Positions 1 to 56,741 of a stretch of DNA of 64,000 bases are shown one piece after another. Position 1 is the stretch's first letter, and each line of letters opens with the position of its first letter. A program made the translations under genes and the position numbers. Origin of the DNA: Malacoraja senta (taxonomy: Eukaryota); NCBI GenBank assembly GCA_038087875.1, contig CM075989.1, positions 13,332,001 to 13,396,000 on the forward strand, in the 5' to 3' direction. The notes under the pieces were generated by a model. The model saw only the letters and a list, made by a program, of their open reading frames with translations, ran no database searches and was not told where the DNA came from.

Positions 1-2162
1 CCGACCCCTGACCTAAAGGATAATAAATTGGATAATAATGTGAAGATCTCTCTGCTGGTGTGCCGTGCATTTGGTCAAAATATTCAAATGCAATTGCTGC
101 AATTTTTATTTTACTTTAGACCCTTTTTTACTTCCCTGCAGCAAACTTGTTGGTCATTCTCTACTATCGTTTAAATGATCTCTTAAATGATCCAGCGAGA
201 CACTTTGTTGTGCCATTATTGGTGCATCCAAACAGAAAGATTAAATATTTACCCTTGTCGCTTCATATTCTGCTGCTATCAATTCTTGAAAACATGTTCG
301 GCTATTTTTCATTAAATACATGCACACCTCCAGGTTGTTCTCCTTTCTGCCCATCATTGAATCCCTCCAGTTATTTTTCACCACCACTGAGCCACAGTAC
401 ATTGTTGTCTCAGTGAAACACTCTGCCCCTTGTCGTTCTCTGCATTCTGTTAGATCGATCACAAGCTGCCTGTAACATGTCTTCACATTTTTCAAGCCAA
501 AGATGAAATTGAAGCTTGGTGATAAGACAGGGTATGAAGGTGGTGTGGGGGGGTTCAGAGAAATATTATATCTGTTGGATTAATTTCAGTTTATGATATT
601 TTACTCAAATCTCTTGTATATTTATGTCCTAGAGAGGTAATTCAGCACATGAATTGGGAGACTGGGATTAAAGGAATGATCACGACTCAAGGGATGAGTC
701 TTGATCATTCCTTTAATCCCATTCTCCCACTTAATTTCCTCAAATTTATCTGGTATATATATCCATTACCCCCCCTGATTCTATCATCATGTACTATTGG
801 GGCAATTAATAATGGCCAGTAAACCTGCCATCCAAAAAGTATTCAGGATATAGATCACCAAAAAAATGCAGTTACGGAGAACAAACAAACTCCACACAGC
901 ATTAGAGATCCCAATAAACCCATTTCACTGCAGCTATGTAACATCTGCTGCACACTAAGCATTTTGGAAAATCTGACCAGATTACACGAGCCAGTGTGGA
1001 TTTATTGTGGTAGATAAGTGTGTGTATGGATGGAAAATATTTTTTTGATCCAGAGGTCAAAGTTAGAGTCATAATTACACGGCCCTTTGATCCAATTCAT
1101 CCATATTACTCCCATTTGCTTGTGTTGGCCCATTTTTCTCTAAACCTTTGTTATCCATGTACCTTTTAAACATTGTAATTGTACCCGCTTCTATCAACTC
1201 TTAAGGCAGTTTGTTTCATAAACCAACCACCCTCTGTGTGGAAAATCCCTCCCCTCTCATTTGAAATCTCTGCCCCCTAGTTTTAGATTCCACTGATGTG
1301 GTTAAAGTCTGATCTGCCCCTCTTGGTTTTGTAAACCTCTACCCTCAGCCTCCTTTGCACCAGGGAAAACAGGCCCAACGTATTCAGTTTCTCCATATAA
1401 CTCATGCCCTCCAGTCTCAGTAATTTCCTTGTGAATCTTTTCTGTACCCTCTTTTAATCACATCCTCATAACATGGCAACCAGAACTACACGAAACACTC
1501 CACGTGTGGTCTCACCGACTTCTTGCGCAGTTGCAACATGACATCCCAACTCTTACAACTGTGAACAGATGTCGGATTTTCATAAATCAGTGAAACATAC
1601 TAAGGGGCTGTGCATAAAATGCTGCAAACACTTGGGTCAAGCTGTGAGGGGAAAGAGTTAATATTTCAGGTCCAAAACTTTTTGTCAAAGCTCTGAGATC
1701 TGAAATGTCAACGCTCTTTCCTTTCCCACGGTCTGTCCTGCTGACTCCTTCCAGCACTTTCCATTTTTATTTCAGATTTCCAGCAATGCAGTTTTTTCTC
1801 TCATGATTTTCATCTGATATAATACATTTGCTATCCTATCCTGTGAATGGATGCATCTCTAAAGGCCTCATTTATACTGGTGGCCCATATGTTCTGTGAC
1901 ATATTTGCCTCGGATGTTTCTGATCATTTGAATTTCCTTCCAAACCAATTGAGAAATACAGATGATTAAACATACTGCTGAAACAAATGATGAGTTTAAT
2001 CTGCCTTTTAGTAAATATTGCTGTCGGTGGCAAGATATAGCATGTTTATCTGCTGTTGAGTCATTCCTCCCTATTTCCCCAGACATGGAGCCAAGTTAAT
2101 CTTTTTTACTGTTTTTGATCCGTTGCTTAATCAATATGTCATATTTTATTTTCTGTACTTAG

Positions 2163-2284
2163 ATATCAAAAGGAATGATTATACGCCAGACAAAATGGTA
2201 CTAGCTCAAGATGATGTAGAAGTTGCAATCCAGTCTGGCAGTGGTACCAAAGATGTACGAAACTCAATACGCCTAATGATTTAG
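2163..2284 (+). CDS. TRPM7: TRPM7 channel-kinase, last coding exon (upstream exons lie outside the window)
   Basis: After the acceptor ttctgtacttag it reads (D)IKRNDYTPDKMVLAQDDVEVAIQSGSGTKDVRNSIRLMI*, matching the recalled TRPM7 C-terminus (DLKRNDYTPDK...NSVRLML*). TRPM7-USP50-USP8 is the known human gene order. Confidence 0.93.
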
Positions 2285-6200: not shown

Positions 6201-8179
6201 CCACAAAGATCCTGTCTGATTTCATCTTCTTAAACCTTACATTAACTTCATTTTGACCAAATTTACGATCTCTGGCCATCCATAGTCCCTTACCTTGCCA
6301 TTCTTTATCAGTAATTACTGGAACATGCTGGTCATGGATTTTGATCAACTGGCTTTTAAATGACTCCTACGTGTCAGGTGCTGACTTACCCAATAACAAC
6401 TGTATTTAATTCCTTCAACTAGCATCACAATCGCAACTTTTTAATCCTGTCTCACACCTTCTGTCTTTTTATTTCTGTCTTTGTCCAACCATCTGCTTAT
6501 CAAAACCCCCCCTCACCTGCATCCATCTATTACTTGCTAGGCTGTTCTCCCCGTAACCTTTGACATTCACCTTAAAAGCCTCTCTGCCTTTCCTCTGTTC
6601 CAGCTGTCATTCTTCCCCCCCCCCCCAACAAATCGTCTCCTATCCGTGTTCTCCAGAGATGCTGCCCGACCTGCTGAGTTACTCCAGAGCTTTGTCTTTT
6701 TTTGTAAACCAGCATCTGCAGTTCCTTGTTTCTACTTCTTTTATCTTCCTCTCTATCGCATCTGAAACATCGAAACTCCGAAACATGGTATCCAAAATGA
6801 TATATTTGTTACAGAGAGTAGTATTATTGTGTTCTGGTCACCCCCCCCCCCCCCCCCCTTTTGGAAGAATGAGGAAACTTTGGAAAGGGTGCAGAAGAGG
6901 TTTACCAGAATGTGCCTGGATTAGAGAATACTAGCTATAAGGAAAGGTTGAACAAACTTGGCTTATTTTTCTGGAGGGTGATAGGAGACCTGATAGAAGT
7001 ATATAAAATAATGAGAGGCAAAGGTAGGGTGGACAGTCAGAAACTTTTTTTTCCCCAGGGTGAAAATGTCAAGGGCATAGCTTTAAGGTGAAATGGGCAA
7101 ATTTTAAAGGAGATATGTGGGGTACGTTTTTGACACAGTGATGAGTGTCAGGAGCACGCCGCCAAGTGTGGTGGTTGGGGCAAATATGATAGTGGTGTTT
7201 AAGAGGCATTTGGATACACACAGGGATATGCAGAGAATTGAAGGAAATGGATCACTTATCCATATCTGAGGCGATTAACTTGTCATCACATTCAGTGCAG
7301 ACATTGTGGGCTAAAGAACTTGTACCTGTGCTATATTGTTCCATGTTCTGTGCCAGGATCAGCCACAGACAATCCTGCACTCCATACCTAGCACTCTGCC
7401 TTTCCTGGGAGTTACTCATCTACCTGGTGTGACAACCTCATTGAAATTCCTACCTATGACGCTCTCAGCATCACGGTCCAGGGTGCGTCCAACTGCATTT
7501 CCAGCCACTCAATTTCCATAGATGCTGCCGCACCCGCTGAGTTTCTCCAGCACTTTTGTCTACCTTCGATTTTCCAGCATCTGCAGTTCCTTCTTAAACA
7601 CTCAATGCCACTAGTTACGAGCTGTAGCTGGACACATTGCCCACAGGTGTAGTCCGCGGGAACACTGGAAGTTTCCCTGGTCTACCACTTTCAGCAGGAA
7701 GAGCACTGTCCTGACTACGTTAAAGCAAAAGAGGAAAGGTAGAAAGATTGTATCTTGCTTTTCCACTTCTCAGCACCTCCGCTGAAGCCTTTAGTGATAA
7801 AGCCTCAGAAGTTTCCATTCATCCGCATCTTATGTGCTCAGTGTGTGTTCCGCATGTGCGAAGTCTGTACAACTTGTTTCGCATCGGAGGTAGACACAAA
7901 ATTCTGCCGTAACTCAGCGGGACGGGCAGCATCTCTGGAGAGAAGGGTCTCGACCCGAAACGTCACCCATTCCTTCTCTCCAGAGATGCTGCCCGTCCCG
8001 CTGAGTTCGTTACTCCAGAATTTTGTTCGAATCTACCTTCGATTTAAACCAGCATCTGCAGTTATTTCCGACGCACATTGTTTGGCATCGGCATCGACCT
8101 CTGCTCACTGTGGACGCAGGCCATAGATGCTGGAATCTGAAGCAACAAACGAGCCAACCTTCACTTTGTTCTGTTGCCG

Positions 8180-8600
8180 ACCGCAGGTGGGTCAGCTGGC
8201 GAGCTCTTCCCAGCCTCCCTTCTCCTGCATTTTGTTTTATTTCGAATTCAAACTGCTGGCCTGGCTTCGATGTCCGGTGTGTTGCAAGCCACCCGCTGGG
8301 CCTGGGACGGTCTCGGGTGGGGCAACGTCAGTGGTGCCGGCCTGTGCGCGGCTCTGGGGGGCGAGTGGTCACAAGAGACCCCGGGACGTCAACGGGGCCC
8401 CGGGCTCAGGTGGCGGTCGTCGCCCGTAAGATGAGGCCTTGTGGATGTGGCTGCGGCGTCCAGCCTGAAGATATCCCCTCGGAAAGCCAACAAAGCCTGG
8501 CGGAAAGCAGCCTGGCTGGGGGCGTGTACGAAGGCGAACACAAAGTTGATGTCAAGGTGGAGTACTGGTGAGTGGGGCGTGTCTACCGTCCCGGGAATTG
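8180..8600 (+). promoter_or_regulatory. CpG-rich promoter/first-exon region of the selenoprotein gene
   Basis: Local GC and CpG enrichment against a CpG-poor background, overlapping coding exon 1. Confidence 0.55.
8431..8567 (+). CDS. selenow2: SELENOW2/MIEN1-like (Rdx family) selenoprotein, coding exon 1
   Basis: ATG at 8431 (A at -3) in a CpG-rich region; MRPCGCGCGVQPEDIPSESQQSLAESSLAGGVYEGEHKVDVKVEY plus a split Cys codon (tg|); donor gtgagt at 8568. VKVEYC is the Rdx-family first strand. The choice of start codon is inferred. Confidence 0.8.
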
Positions 8601-9086
8601 GTTTAGGTTTATTATTGTCACGTGCACCGAGGTACAATGAAAAGGTTTGTTGTGCCTTTTGTCCAATCCCATCAGATATTACTATACATAAATACAATCA
8701 AGCCAAACTCAATAGATAGAGCAAAGGATAGAATATATAGTGTAGTATAGTGCACCAGTTCCAGAGACAACGTCCATGTCAAGGGTGCAGGTGAATCTGA
8801 CATTATCCAAGCTTATGAAGGACAAGTTGGCGATATGCAGAGTACTGCGCTGCCGACTACAAATTCAGAAGATAACAGAGGCAAAGAAGCTGTTCCTAAG
8901 TTGCGGGGGCGTCCCCGGGTACTATGGGCTATTGGTTCTGGCTGCACTGTGACTACAAAATAGTGCAGATTAGTTCAACATCAATGCTGTTGAGATAATC
9001 TGGGGTAAGTACAGACACTCACTGGGACAGCGGGTTGTGGGGGGATGGCGCTGGTGCTGCTTGTCATTCTGACACTCTGTCCCCAG

Positions 9087-9184
9087 TGCCGGATGAGGCT
9101 TCCTGGCGCGTTTCCTGTTCCTTGCCACTGAGATTAAGGAGCAAATTCCAGAGGCGCACATCACCGGGTTCATAGGACAGAAAG
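9087..9184 (+). CDS. selenow2: SELENOW2/MIEN1-like selenoprotein, exon 2 with in-frame Sec UGA (9094-9096)
   Basis: Acceptor ctctgtccccag, phase matches exon 1; (C)AG-TGA-GFLARFLFLATEIKEQIPEAHITGFIGQK(G); donor gtgagt at 9185. Gives a C-x-x-U motif. Confidence 0.9.
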
Positions 9185-9949
9185 GTGAGTGGACCTATCA
9201 CATAATGCAGACTTTAATTTGCCCAACGTTCTGTAAGAATCGCTTCTCATTTAGTTTCTTTATTCGCCAACTCAGAGGCTCCCCTGACTTTTGAAACAGC
9301 TCTAATCACCTCCACTGGGACCACCTTGACATCCGACCCCCTTCTGGTTGCCAGGGAACAGCCTCTCCACCACCTCGGCCCCCTCCTCCCCTGTAATATC
9401 TTCATAGATCTTTTATGCACCCGTTTCCTGTTAAATGGCATAATTCCTCTAACAGGGTGACCAGAACTGTACACTGTACTCCAAATGTGGCCGTCCCAAT
9501 GTCTTGGGCAATTGTAGAAACAAGAAACCTGCTTATGCTGGTTTACATAAAAAGACACAAAGTGTTGGACTAACTCAACAGGTCAGGCAGCATCTCTGGA
9601 GAATGTGGATAGGTGACGTTTTGGGTCGGGCCCTTATTCAGACTGATTGTTGGGTCGAGAGAGAAGAGGAACAGAACAAAGCCTGGCAAGTAATAGGTGG
9701 ATACAGGTGAGGGTGTTTTTGACAGGTAGATGGTTGTTCAAAGGCCAGAGATGAAAAGACAGAAGGTGTGCAACAAGAAGATTGAAGAGTTGCGAATTGT
9801 GAAGATAGAGGGAGGAATGTAGGTGGAAGGGGAGGGTTGGAGGATAAATAGGGGAATGTCCAGATGGGGCACAGGGGAGATAGGGTGGGAGGAGAAGGGG
9901 GGGATTATCTAAAATTGGAGAATTCAATGTTCATACAAATTCAACCCGT

Positions 9950-11990
9950 CGACCAGGCACCAGCACTCGGACACCTCAGACTTATAACTTGACCATGACC
10001 GTACAGTCGAACACCAGGCCATCATCTCCCAGACTGTTTCTGATCTCATCAGCTCTGGTCATCTCCCTCCACAGCCCCCAAATGTAACACACCCCAACCC
10101 CACACTGCCTGCTTCTATCTCCTTCTCAAAATCCACTGTTAAGACAGCCCTGGCAGACCCATTCTTTCTGCTTGTTCCTGCCCCACAGAACTCACCTCCA
10201 AATACCTTGATTCCATCCTATCACCCCCCCCCCCCCCCCCCCACCTTGACCAGTCCTTTCTGACTTAAATCGGTCGTGACACCTCACATGCCTTTCAACT
10301 CTTCAACAACTTTCAGTTTCATGGTCCCTATCGCCTAATTTTTACCATGGACATCTAGTCCCTTTACACCTCCACCCCCAATCATGAAGGTCTAAAGGCT
10401 CCCCAGTTCTTCCTTGAACAGAGACCAATCAATTTCCTTTTATGAACACACTTCTCGGCCTACGGAACCTGTCCTCGCCCTCTACTGTTCTCCTTTGACT
10501 TACTTTCTCCAAGTTAAAGGTGTAGCCATGAACACTCGCATGAGACCCAGCTATGCCTACCTTTTTGTTGGTTACGTTGAACAGGCCTTATTCCAAATGT
10601 ACACTGGCACCATCCCCCAACTCCTTCACAGCTACATTGATGACTGCATTGGGGCTGCCTCCTTTATACTTGCAGAATTTGATAATTTTAATAACTTTAC
10701 CACTAACTTCCACCCTGCTCTCAAATTCATTTGGACTACCTTTGACACCTCCCTCCCCTTTCTTGATTTCTATGTCTCCTTCACAGGGGACAGACTATTG
10801 ACTGATATCTACTACAAACCTACCGACTCCCAGTTATCTGGACTACACTTTCTCCCACCTTGCCTCTTGCAAAGCCGCTATCCCCTACTCTCAATTTCTC
10901 TGCCTCAGCTGCATCTGCTCCCAAATTGAGGCATTCCATTCCAGAACATCCGAGATGTCCTTGTTCTTTAGTAAACGTGGTTTCTCTCCTGCTGTCAAAG
11001 ATGTATCCTTCACCCGCATCTCCTCTGTGTCCCGCTGTTCTGCTCTCGCTCCCCCTCCTCCGAGATGGAACAAGGAAAGAGCCTGGTCTTCAACTATCAT
11101 CCTACGAGCCACCGCATCCAACGCATCATCCTCTTACATTTTCAACACCTCCAGCGTGATCTCACCCCAGTCGCATATTCCCATCTCCACCCTTTTCCGC
11201 CTTCCGGAGAGATGACTCCCACCTCCGCAGATGTGTCACCTGTCCCTATACCTCCTCCCTCACCTACATCCACAGCAGTTCTTCCAGGTGAGACCGAGGA
11301 TCACGTGCACCTCATCTAACTGTACCTACTGCATCCAGTATTCAACGATGTGGGCTCCTGTACATCATCGAGACCAAGTATAGACTCGGCGAACATTTCG
11401 CCGAACACTTGCGCTCAGGCTGCCAAGGCCTGCTGAATCTCCTGGTTGCTACCCATTTTAACTCCTCTTCCCATTCCCATACTGCCCTTCCTGTTGAGGG
11501 CCTCCTCTATTGCCAGACTGAGGCCACATGCAAACTGGAAGGACAACATCTCGTATTCCGCTAGGGTCGCTTACAACCATTGAATTGTCCAATTTTAAGT
11601 AACAACAAAACCCTCCTCCCCATTCTTTGCCCCACCCCCTCGGTCCCTCACCACTGAGCCTCACCCAGACTCGCACCTATTTCTTCCCTGCCCCCCCCCT
11701 TCCACTACACTCCTTCCTCTTGCTTCGCAATTCTTCAATCTATATGTCTCACATCTTCAATCTTTTCATCTAATTTCTAACCGTTTGCCTAACAAAAAGC
11801 CCACTATTATCAACCTATTACCTACCAGGCTTTGTCCTGGCCCTCCTCTCTTCCAGCTTTCTCCCCCCTCCCCCGAAATTAGTCTGAAGAAGGGTTCCAA
11901 CCCAATACATCACCTATCCTTGGTCTCAAAGGATGCTGCCTGACCCTCTGAGTTACTCCAGCACCTTGTGACATTTTTTTTGTAGTTCCT
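9950..11990 (+). mobile_element. Penelope-like element (RT plus GIY-YIG), decayed, in intron 2 of the selenoprotein gene
   Basis: QVKGVAMNTRMRPSYAYLF, YIDD, LPFLD, DIYYKPTDS; Uri-domain remnant near 11290-11420; characteristic 3' repeat at 11880-11970. Confidence 0.8.
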
Positions 11991-12574
11991 TGTTCCTTCA
12001 ATGTTCAAACTACCCAAGCAGAACATGGCTCCAGGGGAGTCAGCCGCTCTTTTTCAGACTGATGTCAGGGGGGTGGCTGTCTCGACCCGAAACATCATCC
12101 ATTCCTTCTTTCCAGAGATGCTGAGTTACTTCAGCATTTTGTCTCTACCGTCTATAATTAATACCCTGACCGATGAAGGCAAGCATGGCAAACATCTTGT
12201 TCACCACCATGTCAACCTATGTCAACAGTTTCATAAACTATATACCTGCACCCCTAGGTCTCTGTTCTACACCACTCCCCAATGCCCTATTATTTACTTT
12301 GTAAGTCTTGCCCTGGTTTATGCTACCAAAATGCAAAATTTTGCATTTATCGGAATTAAACTCCGTCTGCCATTCCTCGGCCCATTGAAGTAACTAATAC
12401 TCTCAACCAAGATAATAAAGCTACAATTCACAGTCTATCATGGTCTAACACATGTGAAACATCAGGGTGAGACCAGTTCCCCCTGAACTCCAGCTGTTTG
12501 AACCAATTTCAGTTTGGGCAGAGACTGCATTAGGTTTGTGAAATGCTGCAAATTATATTTCTTTGTCTCCTCAG

Positions 12575-12651
12575 GAAGTTTTGAAGTTACAATTAACAAT
12601 AAGTTGGTTTTCTCTAAACTGCAATCAAATACATTCCCTCATCATGGCGAC
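12575..12651 (+). CDS. selenow2: SELENOW2/MIEN1-like selenoprotein, exon 3
   Basis: Acceptor ctttgtctcctcag; (G)SFEVTINNKLVFSKLQSNTFPHHGD, the Rdx signature GxFEV...LVFSKL...FP; donor gtgagt at 12652; phases compatible on both sides. Confidence 0.92.
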
Positions 12652-13048
12652 GTGAGTAAATTAGTTAGAAAGCAGTTTTTCCAGTAATATGAACAATGCG
12701 ATGTTGGCATGTGTTGGTATAATCACATCCAGAACCCTGAAGTGTCATTAAGGTGTTATTCCCAGGAATACTGAGCTACCTGCCTCAGAGTAATCGTAAG
12801 ACATTCAATCCATTGAAATCATGCGGGTGCCTGGTAATTTCAACTGCCCTATTTTCTGCTCTGTCCTCATTATATCCTCTAAATGATTCTCCTTCACATT
12901 CAATTAGTTCCCACTCAAAGGTCCAGATTCATCAGTGAATTCTACGCCATAAAATAGCAGGAAGATGCCCCACAGAACCACTGCTGGAGCCACATGCATC
13001 ACTTGTGGCAAGGCAACAAAAGCAGTAGCAGTATTGTGAAGGGAAATT

Positions 13049-13350
13049 TAGTTTAGAGATGCAACACGGAAACAGGCCCTTTGCCCCCAGCCCGCACCAA
13101 CCAGTGATCCCCGCACATTAACACTACGCTACACACTAGGGACATTTTTTTACAGTTACACCAAGCCAATTAACCCGCACAAACCTGTACATCTTTGGAG
13201 TGTGGGAAGAAACTGAACATCTCGGAGAAAACCCACGCAGGTCGTGGGGAGAACGTACAAATTACGTACAGACAAGCACCCGTAGTCAGAATCAAACCAG
13301 GGTCTCCTGCACCGTAAGGCAGTAGCTCAAGCGCTATCTCACCGTGCCGC
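13049..13350 (-). mobile_element. tRNA-derived V-SINE (HE1-like)
   Basis: Head gcggcacggtg, V-domain-like core (tttgtacgttctcccc...cccacactccaaaga), LINE-type tail ending ctctaaactaaa. Related copies at about 13585-13860 (-), 33330-33520 (-) and 59260-59570 (-). Confidence 0.7.
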
Positions 13351-14239
13351 AATTAATTGTTAAGTGGGAAGGTTGCTCACTCTTAAGCCATGATCTTAGT
13401 GAACATTTTTTAAGTCCCCGAGGAAGCATTTGGATGTCACAGTAGCAGGGGGCATGCAGCTCTTTCTCTACAGGAGACCCAAGATGGCGGGCACCTCCCC
13501 ATCATTCAGTCTGGTCATAAATGTCTACAGATACACTCAACACCAGTACTGCCAAAAAAAATACTCAGTATAAATGCTATATTGTTTTAGTTTAGTTTAG
13601 TGATACAGAGTAGAAACATGCCCTTTGGCCCAACGAGTACACGCCAACCAGTATTCACCCGCACGCTCATTCTATCCTACACACTAGTAACCTACAAACC
13701 TGCACGTCTTTGGAATGTGGGAGGAAACCAGAGCATCCGAACAAAACCTATGCGGTCACGGGGAGAATGTACAAACTCCGTACTGACAGCACTCGTAGTC
13801 AGGATTGAACCAGTGTCCCTAGTGCTGAGGCAGTAGCTCTACCTCTGCACCACCATGCCTGCAAAGTTAGAGTGGAAGTCTATTGTGGGCAGTTAGGGGA
13901 ATTAAATAAATCTTTCAAGAGTGCTCCCTAGGTCTATGAGAAGTCGGTGATGTTAGACCTGAAGAAGTGTTCTTTCATTAAAGGATTTGTCCTGAGTGGA
14001 GCCCTGAGTGCTTGAAGTGTAGTTATCTGTCCAGCTCAGTGTAGCTCAGTTTGTCTTTGTTCAGGTTTGCCGATGACTTGAGGCTTGCTAAGAAAATGAG
14101 CTGTATCTGTCGAAAGTTGCACGTGGATAGTTGAAAATAATGTGAAAAATATGTGTCGTTTTACTTTGGGAGAAAGAATAGAAAAAATGAATATCTTCTA
14201 AACAAGCAGATATTGGTGCACAGAAGGATCAGAGTGTAG

Positions 14240-15275
14240 TAACAAAGAACTGTAGATGCTGGTTTACCGAAGATTGACATAAAATGCTGAAGTAACAGGT
14301 CAGGCAGAATCCCTGGAGAATGTATAGGTGATGTTTTGGGTCGGAACCCTTCTTCAGACTGATTGTAGGGAGCAGGCAAGAAAGCTTGGATAGAGATGGG
14401 GCAGGACAGAGCATGACCGGTAATAAGTGAACGCAGGAGATGGAGTTATCTGAGAGGCGGATGACCAGGGATGAGACAATAGATGTGAGCGGATAAAGAG
14501 TTGCAAATTGTTAAGTTTGGAGATGGAAAAGTTGAGAATTGTATATCCTTTGTAAACGGTACAAGTGAAGGGGGAACGGCAGGTGCGAGATCAATCAGGT
14601 TTGGAGAGGAGGGAGAGACAGGAGGAAGGAAAGGAGAGGGAAGATGGCTGTTGTGGGTTAGTCACTTAAAATTGGAAAATTCAATGTTCATATCATTGGG
14701 TTGTAAGCTACCCAAGCAGAAAATAGAAGTGCTGTTCCTCCAGTTTGCGTGTGGTCTCACTCTGGCAATGGAGGAGGCCCAGGTTGGAAAGGTCAATGTG
14801 GGAAGAGGGGGGTTTAAATGGTTAATAACCAGTAGATCCGGTAGGCCTTGGCAGAATGAGCGCAAGTGCTCAGTAAAGTGGTCTCCGAGTCTACGCTTCC
14901 TCTTGCCGATGTACAGGAACCCATTGGGAACATTGGATGCAGTAGATGAAGTTAGAGGAGCTGCATGTGATCCTCTGTCATAGTCATAGAGTCTTACAGA
15001 GTGGAAACAGGCCCTTCAGCCCAAATTGCTCACACTGGCCAACATGTCCCATTTACACTAACCCCACTTGCCTGTGTTTGGCCCATATCCCTCAAACCTG
15101 TCCTATTCATATTCCTGTCTAAATGTTTCTGTCTCACTTGGAAGGACTGCTGGTGTCCCTGGATGGAGGCGAGAGAGGTGGTATAGGGACAGGTGGTTGT
15201 GGAAGAAACTACCTGGGAAGGGATGAGTGAACCGAGGAGTTGCGGAGGAAGCAGTCTCTGCGGAAGGTGGAACAA
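14240..15275 (-). mobile_element. Penelope-like 3' fragment interrupted by a short CR1 tail (about 14980-15130)
   Basis: IFCLGSLQPNDMNIEFSNFK and the same terminal repeat as the other copies. Confidence 0.7.
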
Positions 15276-16131
15276 AATGTGTTGTTTATGAGATTCAGAA
15301 AGTAGGCATGAAGAAGTAGCAGGCAGATAGGAACTAAATGGTGGTTATGTCAGAGTTGTACAGCACACAATAAGCCCTTCTGCCCACGATGCCTATGTGA
15401 CCTTTTTGTCATCTTCGCTAAACCCATTTGCGCACAATAGAATTGTATCATAGAACATCCTACAGTAGAACTCAAGAACATGCCTGTCAGCCCACGCCAA
15501 AGGCAAACACGATGCCAAGACCAACTGTTATCTGCCTGCACGTAATCCATATCTCTCCATTCCTTGCATATCCATATGCCTATCCGGAAGGGTCTTATTT
15601 GCCTCAACCACCATCCCCGAGCCCTCATCACTCTCTGTAAAAAAAACTAGTGCTGCACAACTCCTCTAAACTTTGCCCTTCCCACCTTAAAGCTATGCTC
15701 TCTACTATTTATTTTTTCCTTCCTGGGAAAAAGGTTCTGACTGTCTACCCTATCTATGCCTCTCATAATTCTATCGGAGCTCCCCACAACCTTTGGCTTT
15801 CCAGAGGAAACAATCTGAGTCTGTTCAACCTTTTTCCCTGTAGCTAGGCATCATTCTGGTAAACCTCCTCTGTACACTTTACAAAGCTTCCACGTCCTAC
15901 CTATAATGGTAATAACAGGTATGCCATTAATCGTATGTTTTCCCCTTACATTTTATCTCCCTATGTCTAACATCTTACACTTGCTTAAAGTAATCTCCAT
16001 CTGCCATTTCTCTGCCCATTTCTCTAGCTAATCTATATCTCACTGTATAATTTGGCAGTTTTCTTCACAGTCCACTTCACCAGCAATCTTGGTGTCATCT
16101 GCAAATTTAGTAACCAACCTGTCTACATTTA

Positions 16132-17896
16132 CAGTGCATTCAGAAAGTATTCAAGATACATTTATTTGTCACATGTACCAATTGGTACAGTGAAATGTGT
16201 GGTCAGACCCCTTCACTTTTTCCACATTTTGTTACATTACAACCTTATTCTAGAATGGATTGAATTCATTTTTTTGATCATGAATCTATACATAATACCC
16301 CATAATAACAAAGTTAAAACGGGTGTTCAGAAATTTTTTCAAAATAATTAAAAATAAATAACTGAAATATCACATTTACATAAGTATTCAGATCCTTCAC
16401 GCAGTACTTTGTTGAGGCATCTTTGGCAGCGATTACAGCCTCAAGTTTTCTTGGGTATGATGCTACAAGCTTGGCACACCTGTATTTGGGTAATTTCTCC
16501 CATTCTTCTCTGCAGATCCTCTCAAGCTCTGTCAGGTTGGATGGGGAGCGTCAATGCACAGCTATTTTCAGGTCCCTCCAGAGATATTCGATCGGGTTCA
16601 AGTCCGGGCTCTGGCTGGGCCACTCAAGGACATTGAAAGGCAGTGAAGAAAGCGAATGACATGTTGGCCTTCATAACAAGAGGAGTTGAGTATAGGAGCA
16701 TAGAGGTCCTTCTGCAGTTGTATAGGGCCCTAGTGAGACCACATCTGGAGTATTGTGTGCAGTTTTGGTCCCCTAATTTCAGGAAGGACATTCTTGCTAT
16801 TGAGGGAGTACAGCATAGGTTTACAAGGTTAATTCCCGGGATGGCGGGACTGTCATATGCTAAGAGAATGGAGCAGCTGGGCTTGTACACTCTGGAGTTT
16901 AGAAGGATGAGAGGGGATCTTATTGAAACATGTAAGATTATTTGGATACGCTAGAGACAGGAAACATGTTGCCGACGTTGGGTGAGTCCAGAACCAGGGG
17001 CCACAGTTTAAGAATAAGGGGTGAGCCATTTAGAACGGAGACGAGGAAACACTTTTTCACACAGAGAGTTGTGAGTCTGTGGAATTCTCTGCCTCAGAGG
17101 GCGGTGGAGGCAGGTTCTCTGGATACTTTCAAGAGAGAGCAAGATAACAGAGTCAGGGGATATGGGGAGAAGGCAGGAACGGGGTACTGATTTGGGGATG
17201 ATCAGCCATGATCACATTGAATGGCGGTGCTGGCCACAAAGGAACTCTGGAGCTCTGTCAGAGTGACCATCAGGTGCTTGGTCACCTCCCTGACCAAGCC
17301 CTTCTCCCCCGATTGCTCAGTTTGGCCGGGCAGCCAGCTCTATGAAGAGTCCTGGTGGTTTCAAAGTTCTTCCATTTAAAAATGACAAGGCCACTGTGCT
17401 CTTTGGGAGCTGCAACGCTGCAGAAATTGTTTTATACCCTTCCCCAGATTTGTGTCTCGATACAATCCTGTCTCAGAGGTCTACGGACAATTCCTTTGTC
17501 TTCATGGCTTGGTTTTTGCTCATTGTCAACTGCGGGACCTTATATAGACAGGTGTGTGCCTTTCCAAATCATGTCCAATCAATTTAATTTACCACTTGTG
17601 GACTCCAATCAAGTTGTAGAAACATCTCAAGGATAATCAATGGAAAGAGGATGCACCGAAGCTCAATTTTGAGTGTCATAGCAAAGGGTCTGAATACTTA
17701 TGTCAATGTGATATTGCAGTTATTTATTTTTAATTATTTGCAAAAATTTCTAAACACCAGTTTTTGCTTTTATATTATGAGGTATTGTGTGTAGATTGAT
17801 GATTAAAAAAATGAATTTAATCCATTTTAGAATAAGGCTGTCTTGTACCAAAATGCGGGAAAGGTGAAGGGGTCTGAATACTTTCTGAATGCACTG
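16132..17896 (-). mobile_element. Tc1-like (IR/DR type) DNA transposon, internally deleted, with a nested CR1
   Basis: TA|cagtgcattcagaaagtattca ... tgaatactttctgaatgcactg|TA; long TIRs; minus-strand remnants MKTKELSVDL*DRIVSRHKSGEGYKTIS (from 17505) and [15 protein letters not shown] (near 16630). Confidence 0.88.
16632..17237 (+). mobile_element. CR1 LINE 3' fragment, low-divergence family
   Basis: LYRALVRPHLEYCVQFWSP...; very similar copies at about 28670-28975 and 30315-30835. Confidence 0.85.
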
Positions 17897-19039
17897 TATG
17901 TCCAAGTCATTTATATATATCACAAACAGCAGAGGTCTCAGCAGAGATCATTGCGTATCCTTCTATGCCTTCCATATTCAAGTTCATATAAATGTCTCTT
18001 AAATATAGTGATTGTATCAGATTCCACCACCTCCTCTGGCAGTGAGTTCCAGATATCAACCACTCTGTGTAACAAACAAAAAATCCTCCCTCAGATCTCC
18101 TTTAAAACTCATTCCTCTCACTCTAAACCTTTGACATTTTTAATATCCTCTACCATGGGAAAAAGATTTGAACAATCTCTCCAAACTGTGCCCATCAGAT
18201 CACCCCCTCATCCTCCTTCACTCCAAGGAAAACAAGCCCATCCTATCCAATCTCTCACCATAACTAAAGTCCTCTAATCCAGGCAAAACCCTGGCTACAG
18301 TAAGGGTGTGGGCTGCAGAAATAAGAAAATAAGACAGATTCGTTGAGCTAGTTCAGGGCTTGCGCGACTGGAGGGACGGAGGAAAATATTACCTTGGTCG
18401 GTGCAGTGTATATTCATTGGATTGATTCTGGGGATGAGGGGTTGCACCACGAGGGAAGTTTAAGAAAGATCTGCAGCACTGAAGAATGACAGATGATCTC
18501 ATTAAGAAAGAACTGTGTGAAGGGATTTGTCAGGATCGTGGCTGTTTGTCAGGCTGAAATCTGGGGCAACGCAGAGTCTCAGGATAAGGGACCATGGTTT
18601 TAGGGCGGGAAGAGAAGAAATGTCTTCACTTAGAGAGCAGTGAATCTTCTGAATTCTCTACCCTGGTGACTACTGATGGTGCCAAATGATTCCTGTTTAA
18701 ATACTGAGGGAATGAAGGGATGGGATTGGAAAATAGATAAAGAACAGCACCAATCCCAATGCTACTGAATCAGGAGACATGTTGAGGAAGGAGCACCTGG
18801 TCCTTCTCCAACTTGTAACTGTCAAACAATGGTCATTTTCAGAGGGAGGGTGCACACACGGAGCGATCAGCCTTTTCTAGGATTGCCTCATGTTGATACA
18901 TATTGGATTAATTTATCTTTGAACATGTCTGTCAGCCTCCAACTTGTGAGAGAGAAACTCTGACAATAACAATGCTTGTGTTTTTCGAAGCTTTTGGACG
19001 TTGTTGGCTCTTGTGTTCAAAATATTATCTCCAATTCAG

Positions 19040-19138
19040 ATCGTTTCGGCAGTGAAGGCAGCGAGAGATGGATTGATGCAGAACATTATAAGTGGGGAGA
19101 ACATTATGATCAAGAAGAAAACCTGCACTGTATTGTAG
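19040..19138 (+). CDS. selenow2: SELENOW2/MIEN1-like selenoprotein, exon 4 ending in a CAAX box
   Basis: Acceptor ctccaattcag, phase 0; IVSAVKAARDGLMQNIISGENIMIKKKTCTVL*, paralleling the MIEN1 tail (LIEAIRRA...CVIL); SECIS follows directly. Confidence 0.87.
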   Translation: MVSAVKAARDGLMQNIISGENIMIKKKTCTVL

Positions 19139-19182
19139 CAGAGACTGAGGAACCTGACATTAGTTTATGGTTCAGATTGATG

Positions 19183-19258
19183 AAGCATCATTCTGTCAAT
19201 GATTGTTTTCCCCTAAAGCTGGTGGTGAAGACATGAACAGAAATCAGAAAAGGTGCTT
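19183..19258 (+). promoter_or_regulatory. SECIS element in the 3' UTR of the selenoprotein gene
   Basis: AUGA at 19199-19202, AAA at 19215-19217 (12 nt later), GA at 19235-19236. Helix II tgttttc/gaagaca; helix I ttctg/cagaa extended by aagcatc/ggtgctt. Confidence 0.88.
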
Positions 19259-22200
19259 CTCCTGTTTGGGATCTGCTGCAAACATTGTCATTGGCCAGTC
19301 TGTTGTACACAGATAACCTGCTGTCATATTGTCACATTAAACTGAATTTGTTAAACTTTCCAGTCTTGTTCTCTATGTCAAGAGTAAAGAGTATGTCATT
19401 GTCGTGTGTATCAAAATCGGAACTATTAAATTATTACTTGCAGCAACATATAAATGCAGCAGCATAAAGGCATGTAACCATGGTAACCGTGGTACTCTTA
19501 TATAACACAATAAAAAAATAAAAAATTACATTAAAAAATTGTTCAGGCAAAAATGTCCAAAGTCCCAAGTACAACTAAAACAGTTCATAGTTCAGTTGGT
19601 GTTTGTAGTGTTTAAGTGCCTGGTCGTTGGGAAGAAGGTGTACCTGAACCTGTCAGTCAGCTTTCAAACTCCTATATCTTCTTCCCGATGACAGGAGTAA
19701 AATGAGAACATGGCCAAGGGAACTTGATGATACCAGCTGTCTTTTTGAGGCAGCACTTCCTATAGATCCCTTCGATGGGGGGGGGGGGGGGGGGGGGGTC
19801 AGTATCCGTGATAGCCTGGGCAGTGTCGTCCACTTTTTTAAATCTCCTTTGTTACTGGGCATTCGGGTTGCCGAACAAGGATGTGATGCAACCAGTTAAT
19901 AGACTCTCTGCCATACATCTGTAGAAGTTCTTGTGAGTATTCCATGATCACAATGACTGGTGGTGCTGGCTCGAAGGTGGTGCTAGCTCCTCCTGCACCT
20001 ATTTTCTATGTTTCATCGACATATCAACTCTCCTCAATCTTCTAAAGAAGTAGAAGCATTGCTTTGTTTTCTTTATAATTGCATCAATGTGCTGGGCCCA
20101 ACACAGATCTTTAGAGATGTGCACACCCAGGAACATGAAGCTGTTGACTCCCTCCACCACCAAGTCAATTATGAAGACAGGTTCATGAATCCTTGGCCTA
20201 CCTCTTCTAAAGTCAACAATCAGCTCCTTGATCTTAATGGCATTGAGACCTGTTGGGTGTGTTGATATTCAATAGACCTATCAGCTGTGGAAATGGCTGT
20301 CTCCATCAGGCACAGTGGCTCAGATTTAACAGTAGTCGATCTTTCGTTCTCATGGCCAGTTCTTAGTGTTTCCTCCTCCTCTGTGACATATCCTGACACA
20401 TTCCAGGCAGGAGATACCAATAGAAATAAGAACAAAGGAAATAGAAATAGGAGCCAGCCCTTCATCTCGAGTCTGCTGTCAATCATCAGGACCATGGTTG
20501 ATCCCCCTGATCGTCACTATCCCCATCTCCCTCGATTCCCTTAATATCCAGAAATGTATCAATCTCAGTTTGAATGAACCCAGCCTCCTGGGTACAGAAT
20601 TCCAAAGATTCACCTCCGAGTGTGAAGAAATATCTCCATCTCTTCACCAAATTGTTTGCCCCTCTGCCAGGGATAACCTCCACCCTGCCACCAGCCTATC
20701 AAACCTGTAAGAATTTTGTGAGTTCCAGTGAGATCTCCAAAAAAGAATGGAGTCCAATTCTACACAATCTCTCCTTACATGGCTGGCCCGCCACCTAGGA
20801 ACCAGTCTGGTGAGTTATGAAAAGTATCTCCTTTTTTAGGTGGAGCCCAAAACTATCTACAGTACTCCAGGGTAAAGAATTCCAAAGGTTCACAATTCTG
20901 AGTGGTCGCTCTTTTGTTCTCATGGCCAGGAGGAGCCAGCACCACCTTCGAGCCAGCACCACCAGTCATTGTGATCATGGAATACTCACAAGAACTTCTG
21001 AGTGAATACATTTCTAATTGCAGTCCTATATGGCCTACTACTCATTGGACAGTGACTCCTAGCTATGTAAACATCCTACTCCATGCAACAGATCAGCTAT
21101 CCTAGGAACCAGCCTGATGAATCTCAGCAAGAATATTCTTATTCTTATTCTACCCAACACCATTTCGTGCCTAATGTGAATTTCCTTCAGTTCCTCTGTC
21201 ACCCTAGGTCCTCTGGCCACTAGTACATCTGGGAGATTGTTTGTGTCTTCCTTAGTGAAGTCTTCCAAAATACCTGTTCAACTCGTCTGCAACAGAGATT
21301 TACGAGGATATTGCCAGGACTCGAGTGTCTGAGCTATAGGGAGAGGTTGGGCAGGTTTGGACTTAATTTCTTCGAACACAGGAGGCCAAGGGGTGGTATT
21401 ATAGAGTATAATATCATGTGGGGAATAGATGCACTGCATGCACAGAGTTTTTCCCACGATAAGGAAATCAAGAACTAGAGGGAAAAGGATTAAGGCAAGA
21501 GGGGAAAGATTTAATAGGAATCCAAGGGCAACTTCTTCACACAGAGAGTGGTGGGTATGGAACAAGCTGCCAGAGGAAGTAGTTGAGGTTGGTACAATTG
21601 CGGCATTTTGGTTGGCATGGACGGGTTTGGCTGAAGGACCTGTTTCCCTGCTGTATGACTCCAAGACAATTATTTTCTTTCACAGCAAATTCTCACTAAA
21701 GAATGTCGCTGAGCCATAGATACACACTACACACATATATGTATATTATAATAATATGAAGCTGAAAAGAGTGCAGACATATATAATGTGTGTGTGTGTG
21801 TATGAATGCTTCAGTGACATGCTTTAATTGCTTCCCCTGGTACATCACTCAACTGCACTTTGACTAGCCCCAGGCACATCCTGCAATCAACTATTCTCTG
21901 ATCACCCACAGGTTATATCACCGGCTTCGTTTCGGTGTAGTCAACCACCAGACACACCACTTTTATTGCACATACACAACAGTGACACCAGTGGGTTGGA
22001 TGGTGTTGTATTCTTCATGTATGACCATTTTGTGTCACAAATGTCTTGCGTTGATGGATGCCTACGCACACAGCTGTATCGTTAATTCATGCGAAAGTGT
22101 CCAACAGGAGCCTCACTGATCTCAAACCTGCTCTCATTCTCACTAGACATCAGTTAGTGCTTGGTGTGTGCATCAGTTGCACCACTGACCTGATATGGAC

Positions 22201-27446: not shown

Positions 27447-27646
27447 NNNNNNNNNNNNNNNNNNNNNNNNNNNNNNNNNNNNNNNNNNNNNNNNNNNNNN
27501 NNNNNNNNNNNNNNNNNNNNNNNNNNNNNNNNNNNNNNNNNNNNNNNNNNNNNNNNNNNNNNNNNNNNNNNNNNNNNNNNNNNNNNNNNNNNNNNNNNNN
27601 NNNNNNNNNNNNNNNNNNNNNNNNNNNNNNNNNNNNNNNNNNNNNN
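27447..27646. other. Assembly gap (200 N)
   Basis: Run of N characters. Confidence 1.
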
Positions 27647-31402: not shown

Positions 31403-31624
31403 AGCACGATACTACCACCTTGTCCCCAAGTACAGCAATGGCTCGCTGTTTGACTCCAGCGTCTCCAGCGCTGGCATCGAGCGGCAGGATGGAGGCGCAG
31501 GACAGACAGGCCTGGGCAACACGGGCAACACCTGCTACATGAACTGCATCCTGCAGTGCCTGAGCAACACCACGCCGCTGGTCGAGTACTTCATCACCGG
31601 GGCCTACGCTGATGATATAAGCAG
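31403..31624 (+). CDS. USP50: USP50-like ubiquitin-specific protease, Cys-box exon (start-codon exon not resolved)
   Basis: ARYYHLVPK...GQTGLGNTGNTCYMNCILQCLSNTTPLVEYFITGAY; acceptor after a long pyrimidine tract; donor gtgggc at 31625. Position and orientation relative to TRPM7 and USP8 match USP50. Confidence 0.88.
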
Positions 31625-32144
31625 GTGGGCACCAGCTCAGCGCCCGACCCTCGCCCCCAGCAGTCGGCTGAAGGGGTGAGGTTAAGGGGAGAAGTGGGTG
31701 GAATGAGGTGACTGGGAGGGGTTAGTTGAGTGGGTCAGGGGAAGGCTGGATGGGGCAAGCTGAGAGTAGGAGTGAGGGGTGAGTGAAAGGGGAGGTGAGT
31801 GGGAAGGGGTGAGTAAGGTGAAGGAGTGAAAGGAGAGGGAGGGGTGAGTGGGTGTGTGTGGGTCGTGGTGAAAGTGAAGGGATTGGTGGAGGAGGGTTAG
31901 CTGGGTAATCCAGGAGTGGGTAGGTGAGGTAAGCGGAGAGGTGGGCTTGGTGAGTGGGGTTGAGGGGTTGGGGTTGGCTGAGGTGAGAGGGTGAGGGGAG
32001 GATTGGAATGGGTGGGGTGGGTATGGTGAGGGTTGGTAGGGTGAGAGGAGGAGGTTGTGGCATGAAAGGTGGGCTGTGTGAAATCTGGCGCCATCTAATG
32101 GATCTGTATCATCTGCACTCGGATGTTTTTTCCTCTTCTGACAG

Positions 32145-32355
32145 ATTTTCCTTCTGCAGAGGCCGTGGGGAGCTATCTAATGCCTTCTCGGCTTTAGTGA
32201 TGGACATGTGGTTGGGGGATTGTGTGTACGTCTTTCCGGATGAAGTGAAGAGAGTTCTTGGAAAGATGCACGCTTCCTTCTCCGATGGGACCCAGCAAGA
32301 TGCCCAGGAGTTGCTTCTCTTCTTTCTCAACATTCTCCAAAATGATCTGAAGAGG
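32145..32355 (+). CDS. USP50: USP50-like exon (QQDAQE box)
   Basis: FSFCRGRGELSNAFSALVMDMWLGDCVYVFPDEVKRVLGKMHASFSDGTQQDAQELLLFFLNILQNDLKR; donor gtgagt. An alternative in-frame acceptor would start the exon at 32160. Confidence 0.88.
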
Positions 32356-33630
32356 GTGAGTGCTCAGGGAATGCATGCAGTGGACAGCACTGAAAGGGCA
32401 AGGACGTTTACCCTGAAGAGCAGTCAGCAGCCCATTCCACTGACCTTCCCTGACAACCTGACTGCTTAAACCAGTGGCCAGCTCTTGCCCTTCTGGCCCT
32501 TCTTCTTTCAAAAGATTACTTTACTCATAAAATGTACAAATAGACAACTCACTTGCCAATAGTGACATGAGATTGCAGATGCTGAATTCTTAAACAAAAC
32601 AAAAACTGCTGGAGAACGTAGTTGGGTCAGGCAGCATCTGTAAAAGGAATCGGCAGACAATGTTTTGGGTCAGGACTCTTCACTCTGAAGAAGGGTCCCA
32701 ACCTGAAACGGGACTCGTCCAATCCTTCCACAGTTGCTGTCTGAATCGCTGAGTTCCTCCAACATAGTTGCCATTATTCCATTGCTGTTGCCTTAGGGAA
32801 GTCAAAAACTAGAGGGAAAAGTTTTAATAGGAACCCGAGTGACAACCTTTTCAAACATTGGGTGGTGGGTATATGAAACAAGCTGCCATAGGTACTGGTA
32901 AAGTAGTGACATTTCAATAATATTTGGACAGGTACATGGATAGGAACGGTTTAGAGGAATATGGGCCAAATGTGTGTAAATGGACTAGCTGAGATGGGGG
33001 CTTCTTGGTCAGCATGGATGAGTCAGGCCAAAGGCCCTGTCTACATGCTGTATGACACTATGACTTTATTATTCGTTGTACCAGCCCATCATTGCATTTG
33101 TTTGCGATGTTGCGATTAATAATACCATCATGTATTGATTGATATTTGACAACAATTCCAACCCTCAGTGCTGGGCAGGACCTTTGCCACTCAGCCTTTC
33201 TCCATGGGGCAGCCCCATGTCTTGACATGTCCCTCACAGCTATTTCATTGCCCCACTTATATCCCTGGAACCTCATTTCTCTGACAAACCCGTTAACTCC
33301 GTCATGCTTCTCCTACCACCCACAAACACCAGGGACAATTTGTAGCCGCCAGTTAACCTATCAGTCGCACGTCTTTGGGATGAGGGAGGAAACCAATGCA
33401 GCTGGAAAACCTGTGTGGTCGCAGGGAGAACGAGCAGACTCCACATCAACAGCATCCAAAGTTGGGATTGGACACAAGTCACTGGAGCTGCAAGGCAGCA
33501 GCACGACTTGCTGCACTGCAATGCTGCCCTATAATCACCCTTGTTGGCGAGGTGCCATGTGCCAAGTACCTATTAAGATACACCAGACCTTTTGAGATGG
33601 ACAGTGAACTGAAGAATATTCTCTTCTCAG

Positions 33631-33795
33631 TCTTCAGGTGTGAGAAACATAGAAACATCAATCGTTACAAAGTTGTTCCAAGGGCAACTGAGCTACATAA
33701 AACTCTGCCTGAATTGTTACCACAAGTCCAACCAAACCGAGAACTTCCTGAGCCTCTCACTCCCCATGCCAACAGACAGCAGATGTTCCATTCAG
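33631..33795 (+). CDS. USP50: USP50-like exon
   Basis: SSGVRNIETSIVTKLFQGQLSYIKLCLNCYHKSNQTENFLSLSLPMPTDSRCSIQ; phase-0 acceptor ctcttctcag; donor gtaaag. The 5' boundary is less certain. Confidence 0.82.
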
Positions 33796-34691
33796 GTAAA
33801 GACTCACCATTATGTTAATGCCAAGAAAAAGGATTTCAAACTTTCGGTGCACTAACCTGATACCACATTTAGCACTAACACTTGATTGCGTAGTTGGCCA
33901 GAAACCTGCTAATATGTGACCTTCGGTTTCCAAAGACATTTCAAAAGGCTGCGAGGTGGAGGGAGGAAAGAGACACAGGGATCAAACAAAAAGTGAGATA
34001 TGTCAGGAGGGGAGCTAGAAGGTTGGGCAATTTCTCATTCATCATGCAGATTAGTTGTGCTCCCAGGTGAAACTTGTTGAGATTGAGATGCATTGTTGTG
34101 GTGAGAGGTAGGATATCAATCTGCACGGACTTCATTAGAATCATCGTTTGCCTGTCATCAAGTACGTAGAACAGTACAGTACAAGACAGGCCCTGCGGCC
34201 CACATTATCTTTGTTGAACACAATGCCAAATTAATCTTTTCTTCTTCCTCCATGTGATCCAGATCCCTTCATTAGCAGGGTATTCATAAGCCTCTCCAAA
34301 AACCTGTAAAATGCCACGATCGTATCGGCTTCCACCATCACCCCTGGCAGCAAATTCCAGGCACCTGTGTAAAAAAAAAACTTGCCCTGTACATCTCCTT
34401 TAAACATTCCCCTTTTCACACTTCACTGGTAGATGTTTCTGGACTATTGCAATTGCACCTCTGGTGTGTAGGCTGTCTCCTGGTTGCCGGCTGCATCAGC
34501 CTGGGCCGGCCAGCGCTGCAGGGATAGCAATGTGCTCAGTGAAACCTCTGCAGTAGAGGCTGGTCAAAGTGGATCTCCTGACCTCAGGCTACAATAGCCC
34601 ACTGGGAGGGGAATCTGTGTCAGAGTGACAGTGTTGTGTTGGGGTGTGTGGCGTCTGCTGCAGCTTTGCTAATGATGGCTGCTGGTTGCAG

Positions 34692-34834
34692 GACTGTCTC
34701 AGGCTGTTCTTTAAAGAAGAGGTTCTGAGCTCGAGGGACCAGCCTTTCTGCTCCTTCTGCGGCCAGAAGCAGGACCTGGCGGAGAGTATCCAGCTGCTGA
34801 AGGCTCCTGACATCATCATCATCCACCTGAAGCG
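34692..34834 (+). CDS. USP50: USP50-like exon
   Basis: DCLRLFFKEEVLSSRDQPFCSFCGQKQDLAESIQLLKAPDIIIIHLK(R); ag/gtgagt boundaries; 143 nt. Confidence 0.9.
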
Positions 34835-35175
34835 GTGAGTTCTCGAGCTTTGGTTTCCTTCCGTCAGGGGAGGTGGGGGCAGGAGATGGTCCCAAGTCCC
34901 ACTAGAAAGCGCCAGCTTCGGTGACCATGCTTGACTCTCTGTGAGCTAGAATTTCCATTAATTATTAATCAGTGCCAGTCTTTGATACCAATCTTTGAAT
35001 AATTTGAATGATGGCGATTTTCTCTGTGCAGGAGCCATCAAACACCTTCCACTGGAATATTCAAGGGCATTGACTGCCCCTCTCCCCCTGTTGTTCTCCC
35101 TTTCGGTGTCAATGTCTTGCCTCACAATTGTTCAATAGTTCTGTCTGCGATTTAATCATTCCCTTTCCCCACCAG

Positions 35176-35308
35176 CTTTGAATCAGACGATCATGGCCAC
35201 AGGAAACTGACCAGTACGGTGACTTTTCCACTTGAAGATCTCGATCTGACTCAGTACACAACCACTCCATCAACTCAGCAGATGAAGTATCAACTCTATG
35301 CTGTGGTG
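35176..35308 (+). CDS. USP50: USP50-like exon (absent from the ORF track)
   Basis: FESDDHGHRKLTSTVTFPLEDLDLTQYTTTPSTQQMKYQLYAVV; acceptor cccaccag, donor gtgagt; 133 nt; phases fit both neighbours. Confidence 0.9.
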
Positions 35309-37091: not shown

Positions 37092-37268
37092 AACCACACC
37101 GGCACCTTGGACAGTGGCCACTACACTGCCTTCTGCAAGAACCCAGTGACACAGATCTGGCATGAGTTCAATGATGCAAAAGTAACCAGCATTTCTGAGC
37201 AGAAGATCCAGTCGCCAGCAGCCTATGTACTCTTCTATAATTGTGTGAATTTTCAGTGGCCTCAATAA
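37092..37268 (+). CDS. USP50: USP50-like last exon (His box)
   Basis: NHTGTLDSGHYTAFCKNPVTQIWHEFNDAKVTSISEQKIQSPAAYVLFYNCVNFQWPQ*; AATAAA at 37288-37293. Confidence 0.92.
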   Translation, partial: NHTGTLDSGHYTAFCKNPVTQIWHEFNDAKVTSISEQKIQSPAAYVLFYNCVNFQWPQ

Positions 37269-45630: not shown

Positions 45631-45717
45631 TACGAGAGTCCCTCTTACCTCTACGGGACTTGCCCTAATTTAAGTAGAATGTTAGGCCCGAAATGTAGCA
45701 ATAAAGGAGCTACCTAC

Positions 45718-48338: not shown

Positions 48339-48354
48339 TATCAAAGAGCCCTAC

Positions 48355-56504: not shown

Positions 56505-56741
<237 letters not shown>

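Follow-up and report, generated by a model that had tools for sequence, protein, structure and literature searches.

The genome of the skate Malacoraja senta contains, in a 64,000-nucleotide stretch (GenBank assembly GCA_038087875.1, contig CM075989.1, positions 13,332,001 to 13,396,000 of the forward strand; hereafter the window), a predicted four-exon gene for a selenoprotein of the Rdx family, located downstream of a TRPM7-type kinase gene. We hold it highly probable that this gene is an intact SELENOW2 that has stayed at its ancestral position next to TRPM7 and is conserved in both skates and sharks. The first-pass annotation had proposed a UGA-recoded Rdx-family gene with a CxxU motif (U being selenocysteine, Sec), a selenocysteine insertion sequence (SECIS) and a CAAX box, which is the best reading of the evidence. 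Its label 'SELENOW2/MIEN1-like' was right as to the family and is here refined to SELENOW2, on the grounds of the gene neighbours and of a second Sec paralog, a separate MIEN1 gene located on another contig (C10). In a survey by Tico, Lozano-Fernandez and Mariotti (2026, PMC13134290), every ray-finned fish and amphibian tested had SELENOW2 close to TRPM7; statements on this and the other cited papers refer to the parts of each that were covered here.

Gene structure and the selenocysteine codon

The features of the gene are as follows (window positions):

7751-8750, no strand: CpG-rich stretch by CpG observed/expected, covering the probable promoter and exon 1
8431-8567, plus strand: coding exon 1 (137 nt), with the ATG, C4, C6, C8, an acidic linker and strand beta1, ending within the Cys46 codon
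9087-9184, plus strand: exon 2 (98 nt), completing CxxU, with helix alpha1 and strand beta2
9094-9096, plus strand: in-frame TGA, predicted Sec49, three codons after Cys46, in C46-A-G-U49
12575-12651, plus strand: exon 3 (77 nt), with the GSFEV motif and the C-terminal half of the Rdx domain
19040-19138, plus strand: coding part of exon 4 (99 nt), with helix alpha2, tail and TAG, conserved in skate and shark models
19112-19135, plus strand: three lysines, Thr and the CAAX box CTVL, by sequence, identical in two other skates
19182-19259 (core 19199-19237), plus strand: SECIS-like element in the 3' untranslated region (UTR), by fold, pattern and Rfam SECIS_1
19509-19522, plus strand: two AATAAA signals (at 19509 and 19517), by sequence motif, probable mRNA end

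Joining the four exons gives 411 nt, read directly from the sequence, that encode 136 residues, end at the TAG and hold one internal TGA. All three introns combine a GTGAGT donor with a pyrimidine-rich AG acceptor. This reproduces exactly the exons and phase-compatible GT-AG introns of the first-pass annotation, and confirms its claim of a single in-frame TGA. The genome (1.94 Gb) holds one copy of the exon 2 region, on contig C13. Both hallmarks of the Rdx family are present, namely CxxU after strand beta1 and GxFE(I/V), here GSFEV, and the Sec49 TGA aligns to the second cysteine of the human MIEN1 CxxC motif as well as to the TGA of the C10 paralog. Exon 3 alone matches Pfam PF10262 (Rdx) at 23.7 bits (cut-off 22.6), and in a genome-wide search the same profile reaches 32.2 bits at the locus; the ortholog from Rhinoraja scores 43.2 bits. 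Exon 2, which is strongly diverged, has no Pfam match when scanned alone.

The CpG observed/expected ratio is 0.76-0.89 in the four 250-nt bins of the CpG-rich stretch, compared with 0.26-0.53 in the eight surrounding bins. Two ATG frames lie upstream of the predicted start (8127-8434, plus strand), one running from 8127 to 8429 and the other from 8271 to a TGA that overlaps the start codon; they would be upstream open reading frames (ORFs) if the transcript begins that far 5'.

The first-pass annotation had also raised the possibility that the TGA is a sequencing error. Contigs of two public runs covering 8834-9564 show 0 differences and leave the TGA unchanged, and an assembly error at this site was rejected; as the runs may come from the source sample, this agreement argues only against a consensus error. 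Both runs behave as genomic contigs, with no splice joint among those listed, and say nothing either way on expression. A stem-loop directly after the UGA was considered and rejected, its fold being no better than that of shuffled sequences (z -0.45).

SECIS-like element

Recoding depends on the SECIS-SBP2-eEFSec system, which lets UGA be read as selenocysteine. A SECIS 45 nt after the TAG had been claimed in the first-pass annotation; a SECIS-like hairpin is indeed found there, with its helix starting 43 nt after the TAG, and the UGA lies about 300 nt upstream of it in the predicted mRNA. The core comprises AUGA (19199-19202), AAA 12 nt further on and a 3' UGAA (19234-19237), with both helices present. 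The hairpin folds at -26 kcal/mol (z -3.54), and none of 200 shuffles folded equally well. A strict SECIS pattern occurs at two places on the plus strand of the window (19199, and 37162 within a USP coding exon) and nowhere on the minus strand; among 1000 dinucleotide-shuffled versions of the 3' region, one contained it. In a narrow scan of the element, SECIS_1 ranked top of 4227 Rfam families (E 0.097), and an Rfam scan of the wider 14 kb (8000-22000) listed no SECIS.

Orthologous models in skates and sharks

Five orthologous NCBI proteins were retrieved, from Rhinoraja longicauda, Leucoraja erinacea, Chiloscyllium plagiosum, Hemiscyllium ocellatum and Rhincodon typus (XP_078283304.1, XP_055517292.1, XP_043529905.1, XP_060708816.1, XP_048471728.1), all of them named 'MIEN1-like'. 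Over the 87 residues after the Sec position, identity to the window protein is 79% for Rhinoraja and 57-61% for the three sharks, compared with 38-43% for ray MIEN1s. The coding constraint downstream of the TGA that the first-pass annotation had asked about is thus indicated by skate/shark identity. Furthermore, 20 of the 29 exon 2 residues are identical between the skate and the Hemiscyllium ortholog.

The CxxU site is missing from every one of the five models, in line with the earlier expectation that gene callers would mangle such a gene. Four of them resume homology at the Sec position or at most two residues after it, and the fifth skips exon 2. The models appear to break at the Sec site as expected if the TGA blocks the gene caller in each relative. 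The Rhinoraja model has an N-terminus resembling a long interspersed nuclear element (LINE) and resumes homology just after the Sec site, at a point where, in the window, an AG overlapping the TGA offers a gene caller a possible acceptor. The Hemiscyllium model is partial and begins at the residue after Sec. The Leucoraja erinacea model reads exon 1 in another frame from the same donor and skips exon 2; when the window is read in the same manner, 85 of 92 residues match. The relatives' models also use the exon 1 donor and junctions 2-3 and 3-4, and junction 1-2 occurs in none of them.

The N-termini of the NCBI models were rejected as real. With a custom aligner the whale-shark N-terminus aligns best in the predicted frame of exon 1 (score 37, against 14 and 24; reached in 4 of 2000 shuffles), which is a modest signal, and BLASTP returned no alignment between exon 1 and the whale-shark model. 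In Hypanus and two Mobula species only MIEN1-type proteins were among the matches, and no TRPM7-type protein was among them for these rays or for Callorhinchus, the genomes themselves lying outside this search. The ESM Atlas gave three MIEN1-named clusters at 0.80-0.81, to be taken as a lead only.

Gene order, phylogeny and the separate MIEN1 gene

The neighbours of the gene in the window are the following:

2160-2284, plus strand: upstream neighbour TRPM7, its probable last coding exon, an ORF identified by likeness to the human tail
31455-37265, plus strand: USP gene, USP50 by position (downstream neighbour), with a UCH domain in all four ORFs scanned, one of them weakly
43453-56741, minus strand: USP8 catalytic-domain exons, best PDB match USP8 (E 6e-33)

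The first-pass annotation had placed the gene between TRPM7 and USP50. A TRPM7-type kinase upstream and a USP gene downstream are both found; the name USP50 follows from position. Firm alpha-kinase exons lie on the same strand 1-10 kb before the start of the window, and match the TRPM7 kinase structure 1IA9 (E 3e-39). We take the gene to be TRPM7 rather than TRPM6 from this match together with the USP50/USP8 order. The ORF at 2160-2284, presumably the last TRPM7 exon by its likeness to the human tail, gave no TRPM7 match in a PDB search.

The second Sec paralog (C10, 5658753-5665662) carries its TGA at the corresponding position, ends in CVIL and has exons 98, 77 and 84 nt long; the internal exon lengths of 98 and 77 nt are common to both genes. 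Its product hardly differs from the Amblyraja radiata MIEN1 in the survey supplement (PMC13134290). This gene is the Sec-MIEN1 of the skate, separate from the window gene, so that the statement in the first-pass annotation that MIEN1 is the Cys form of mammals and SELENOW2 the Sec form of fishes is outdated: fishes, including this skate, also carry Sec-MIEN1. The published neighbours of MIEN1 are GRB7/ERBB2 in amniotes and UBTF/ATXN7L3 in ray-finned fishes, the GRB7 linkage having been found only within amniotes (PMC13134290). Here, the GRB7-family and ATXN7L3-type domains found are both on C10 and none is on C13, so that the window gene lacks the MIEN1 neighbourhood; some 90 kb separate the C10 gene from a GRB7-family BPS domain in divergent orientation. 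The GRB7-MIEN1 linkage of amniotes is now extended to a cartilaginous fish. The identification of the window gene as the skate MIEN1 was rejected, MIEN1 being the gene on C10.

Motif searches did not find exon 1 of the C10 gene, and ERBB2 motifs had no match in 70 kb of C10. The C10 gene has a weak SECIS candidate, without Rfam SECIS match and folding no better than shuffles (z 0.15). A G+C-rich tandem array of about 21-nt units lies upstream of its exon 2 (C10, about 5652900-5653400).

The genome-wide Rdx profile search gave three places only, the third being a weak one (contig C4488:18132-18293, E 7.6, below the cut-off), probably by chance. It found no SELENOT or SELENOH and is therefore too insensitive to test the reported loss of SELENOW1. 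A sturgeon MIEN1 query finds exon 2 of the C10 gene and misses exon 2 of the window gene.

A tree was built from 31 rows (29 hand-chosen) over 82 alignment columns, with non-homologous N-termini trimmed on 26 of the 29, and without a SELENOW1 outgroup or the frog, gar and lamprey SELENOW2. The six TRPM7-type rows from elasmobranchs come out together in a starred group (98/96), apart from an 18-row MIEN1 group (93/93). In a search of 1.84 billion proteins, by representatives, which gave 17 matches, the best-scoring one outside elasmobranchs was an Albula model in which a TRPM7 kinase exon is fused to Rdx exons. This model (Albula glossodonta KAG9341356.1) is probably a mis-join avoiding the UGA exon, and marks a TRPM7-linked SELENOW2 in bonefish.

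Discussion

Several points weigh against reading the gene as an intact, conserved SELENOW2. The TRPM7-type elasmobranch group is not firmly joined to the TRPM7-linked bony-fish rows and has no settled position relative to the TRPM7-linked fish rows and the invertebrate rows. The MIEN1 branch carries no star, the bootstrap is not settled and the outgroup is not one clade. In addition, an approximately unbiased (AU) test does not reject the group and elasmobranch MIEN1 as one clade (p-AU 0.165). With a tree of 82 columns, an unsettled bootstrap and this non-rejection, orthology rests mainly on gene order, and among elasmobranch orthologs the TRPM7 adjacency was read in the Malacoraja senta genome alone. 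The TGA and SECIS of the relatives are surmised from the pattern of broken models, and splicing and expression of the gene are predicted from genomic DNA. The Rfam SECIS_1 match (19191-19249) is full length and scores 21.6 bits, below the gathering score of 35; since the SECIS candidate of the genome's own MIEN1 has no Rfam match, this sub-threshold score says little.

Two other explanations were weighed. The gene could encode a functional selenoprotein that is an elasmobranch-specific, fast-evolving MIEN1 duplicate, lying beside TRPM7 or replacing the old SELENOW2 there. The AU result, the 'MIEN1-like' names given by NCBI to the five orthologs and a long stem branch (0.67) would fit such an origin, which nevertheless requires that an intron-keeping copy landed at the exact marker locus of SELENOW2 in bony fishes and frogs. 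The unconstrained tree is 10.4 log-likelihood units better, and the tail and helix resemble, as judged by eye, the frog SELENOW2 of the survey supplement, with its basic-Thr-Cys tail (PMC13134290). We regard a duplicate of this kind as improbable. Slightly less credible still is that the UGA acts as a genuine stop or is removed by splicing, with the gene decaying or its main transcript skipping exon 2 and no redox protein being made. The exon 2 skipping of the L. erinacea model may be that of a real transcript, exon 2 is too diverged for Pfam when alone, the gene model has a genomic source, and seven chondrichthyan RNA sets were SELENOW2-negative in the survey (PMC13134290); however, about two thirds of exon 2 is kept between skate and shark, skipping of this exon from the predicted ATG shifts the frame into a stop no more than three codons on, and the window lacks the ATGs used by the L. 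erinacea model. Moreover, the TGA stands at the Sec position of the family and a SECIS-like element is present.

If the gene is SELENOW2, its four exons would be spliced into one mRNA whose 3' UTR SECIS would recruit SBP2 and eEFSec, so that the exon 2 UGA would be read as Sec and translation would continue to the UAG. The product would be a 136-residue thioredoxin-like (Rdx) protein, in which Cys46-x-x-Sec49 would cycle between selenenyl-sulfide and selenol/thiol forms, probably being re-reduced by glutathione. The fold of MIEN1 is thioredoxin-like with an active-site redox potential of -225 mV (PMC3527542), and its CVIL end is geranylgeranylated and anchors the protein on the cytosolic membrane face (PMC6738349). 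By analogy, the basic tail and CTVL would be geranylgeranylated and hold the protein on this same face, where it may reduce or isomerise disulfides of membrane-near proteins. We infer splicing, Sec insertion, prenylation, redox activity and substrates from knowledge of the family; the family is known, and the biochemistry of the product is probably that of its members. As two junctions lie downstream of the UGA, the mRNA would be expected to be prone to nonsense-mediated decay under selenium shortage.

A predicted model of a shark ortholog, lacking beta1 and with a predicted local distance difference test score (pLDDT) of 73, has MIEN1 (2LJK) as its best fold match and mouse SelW as the second. 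The window gene shares with MIEN1 (also Rdx12 or C17orf37; Sec in fishes, Cys in amniotes) this thioredoxin-like fold, the 98- and 77-nt exons and a CAAX box ending in Leu, which is common to MIEN1 and SELENOW2-type proteins and hence not diagnostic. It differs at human Tyr39/Tyr50, which are Phe/Ile in the window protein and which we take to be tyrosines resembling an immunoreceptor tyrosine-based activation motif (ITAM), and at the acidic-patch residues Glu36/Glu41, which are Leu/Phe in the skate and Leu/Thr in sharks. With the published SELENOW2 it has in common the Rdx domain, CxxU with UGA, TRPM7 adjacency, a third exon of 77 nt, the length predicted in frog, and basic residues before a C-terminal CAAX-like end (PMC13134290). 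It differs from that set in its cartilaginous-fish host, a group missing from the published branch, in the hydrophobic start of helix alpha1 (F-L-A-x-F-L, against Y-x-P-R-Y-x-E in most relatives), in a longer N-terminus (about 38 added residues, three extra cysteines among them) and in a few additional tail residues. SELENOW (SELENOW1) and SELENOV have the same Rdx fold and CxxU, and, unlike the window protein, no CAAX tail in the supplement sequences and other gene neighbours (PMC13134290).

We read the three lysines, the extra cysteines and the altered acidic patch and tyrosines as possible signs of stronger membrane targeting and other partners. A tentative extension, which we put forward as a speculation, is that SELENOW2 was kept since the common ancestor of sharks and skates and reshaped to a membrane-hugging Sec oxidoreductase with substrates unlike those of MIEN1, its divergence having hidden the gene from profile searches. 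On the same doubtful footing, the acidic helix face by Sec would now be hydrophobic, and the basic CAAX tail together with the three N-terminal cysteines, possible acylation sites, would add to the membrane contact.

As regards the published distribution, Mariotti et al. (2012, PMC3316567) reported 'SelW2' as a Sec protein of elephant shark, frog and bony fishes, with Rdx12 dated just before amphibians; the text does not tell which paralog the elephant-shark 'SelW2' is. The frog SelW2 of that paper appears to be SELENOW2, and by inference SelW2c as well. The 2026 survey separated MIEN1 from SELENOW2, gave a SELENOW2 branch of invertebrates, cyclostomes, amphibians and ray-finned fishes, and placed the duplication at the jawed-vertebrate root (PMC13134290). 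Its text does not state a chondrichthyan loss in the parts covered, and its Table T2 gives all seven shark, skate and ray RNA sets as SELENOW2-negative and MIEN1-positive. Among at least 80 SELENOW2-labelled supplement entries, one is chondrichthyan, an 'unaligned' Mobula fragment without visible Rdx likeness. No Sec-SELENOW2 of any cartilaginous fish is in the supplement through the SELENOW file, a comparison that its figures, which lay outside it, could change. Likewise, 15 of 15 peptides diagnostic for the skate/shark protein are absent from the supplement, where both control peptides were found, despite the presence of Chiloscyllium plagiosum, Hemiscyllium and Rhincodon in the data set. 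A literature search, with most subscription journals outside its scope, found no other paper on chondrichthyan SELENOW2.

The diverged Sec exon is a likely cause of the survey's miss, since exon 2 is blank in Pfam and the sturgeon MIEN1 query misses it. Such an exon can escape profile searches, which calls for caution with gene-loss counts; on the speculation above, part of the 13 losses of SELENOW2 counted in ray-finned fishes (PMC13134290) may likewise be failures of detection. The gene would add one selenoprotein to the cartilaginous-fish set, remove an apparent gap in the most complete vertebrate survey and mark five database models as wrong at the active site. That a single cartilaginous fish has SELENOW2 next to TRPM7 as well as a Sec-MIEN1 close to GRB7 supports the dating to the jawed-vertebrate root, against that of 2012.

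Other features of the window

A 200-base assembly gap (27447-27646) lies between the selenoprotein gene and the USP gene. The USP50-like gene (31455-37265, plus strand) has a catalytic Cys box and a His box followed by Asn-Asp, so that its triad looks complete; human USP50 is described as lacking a catalytic residue.

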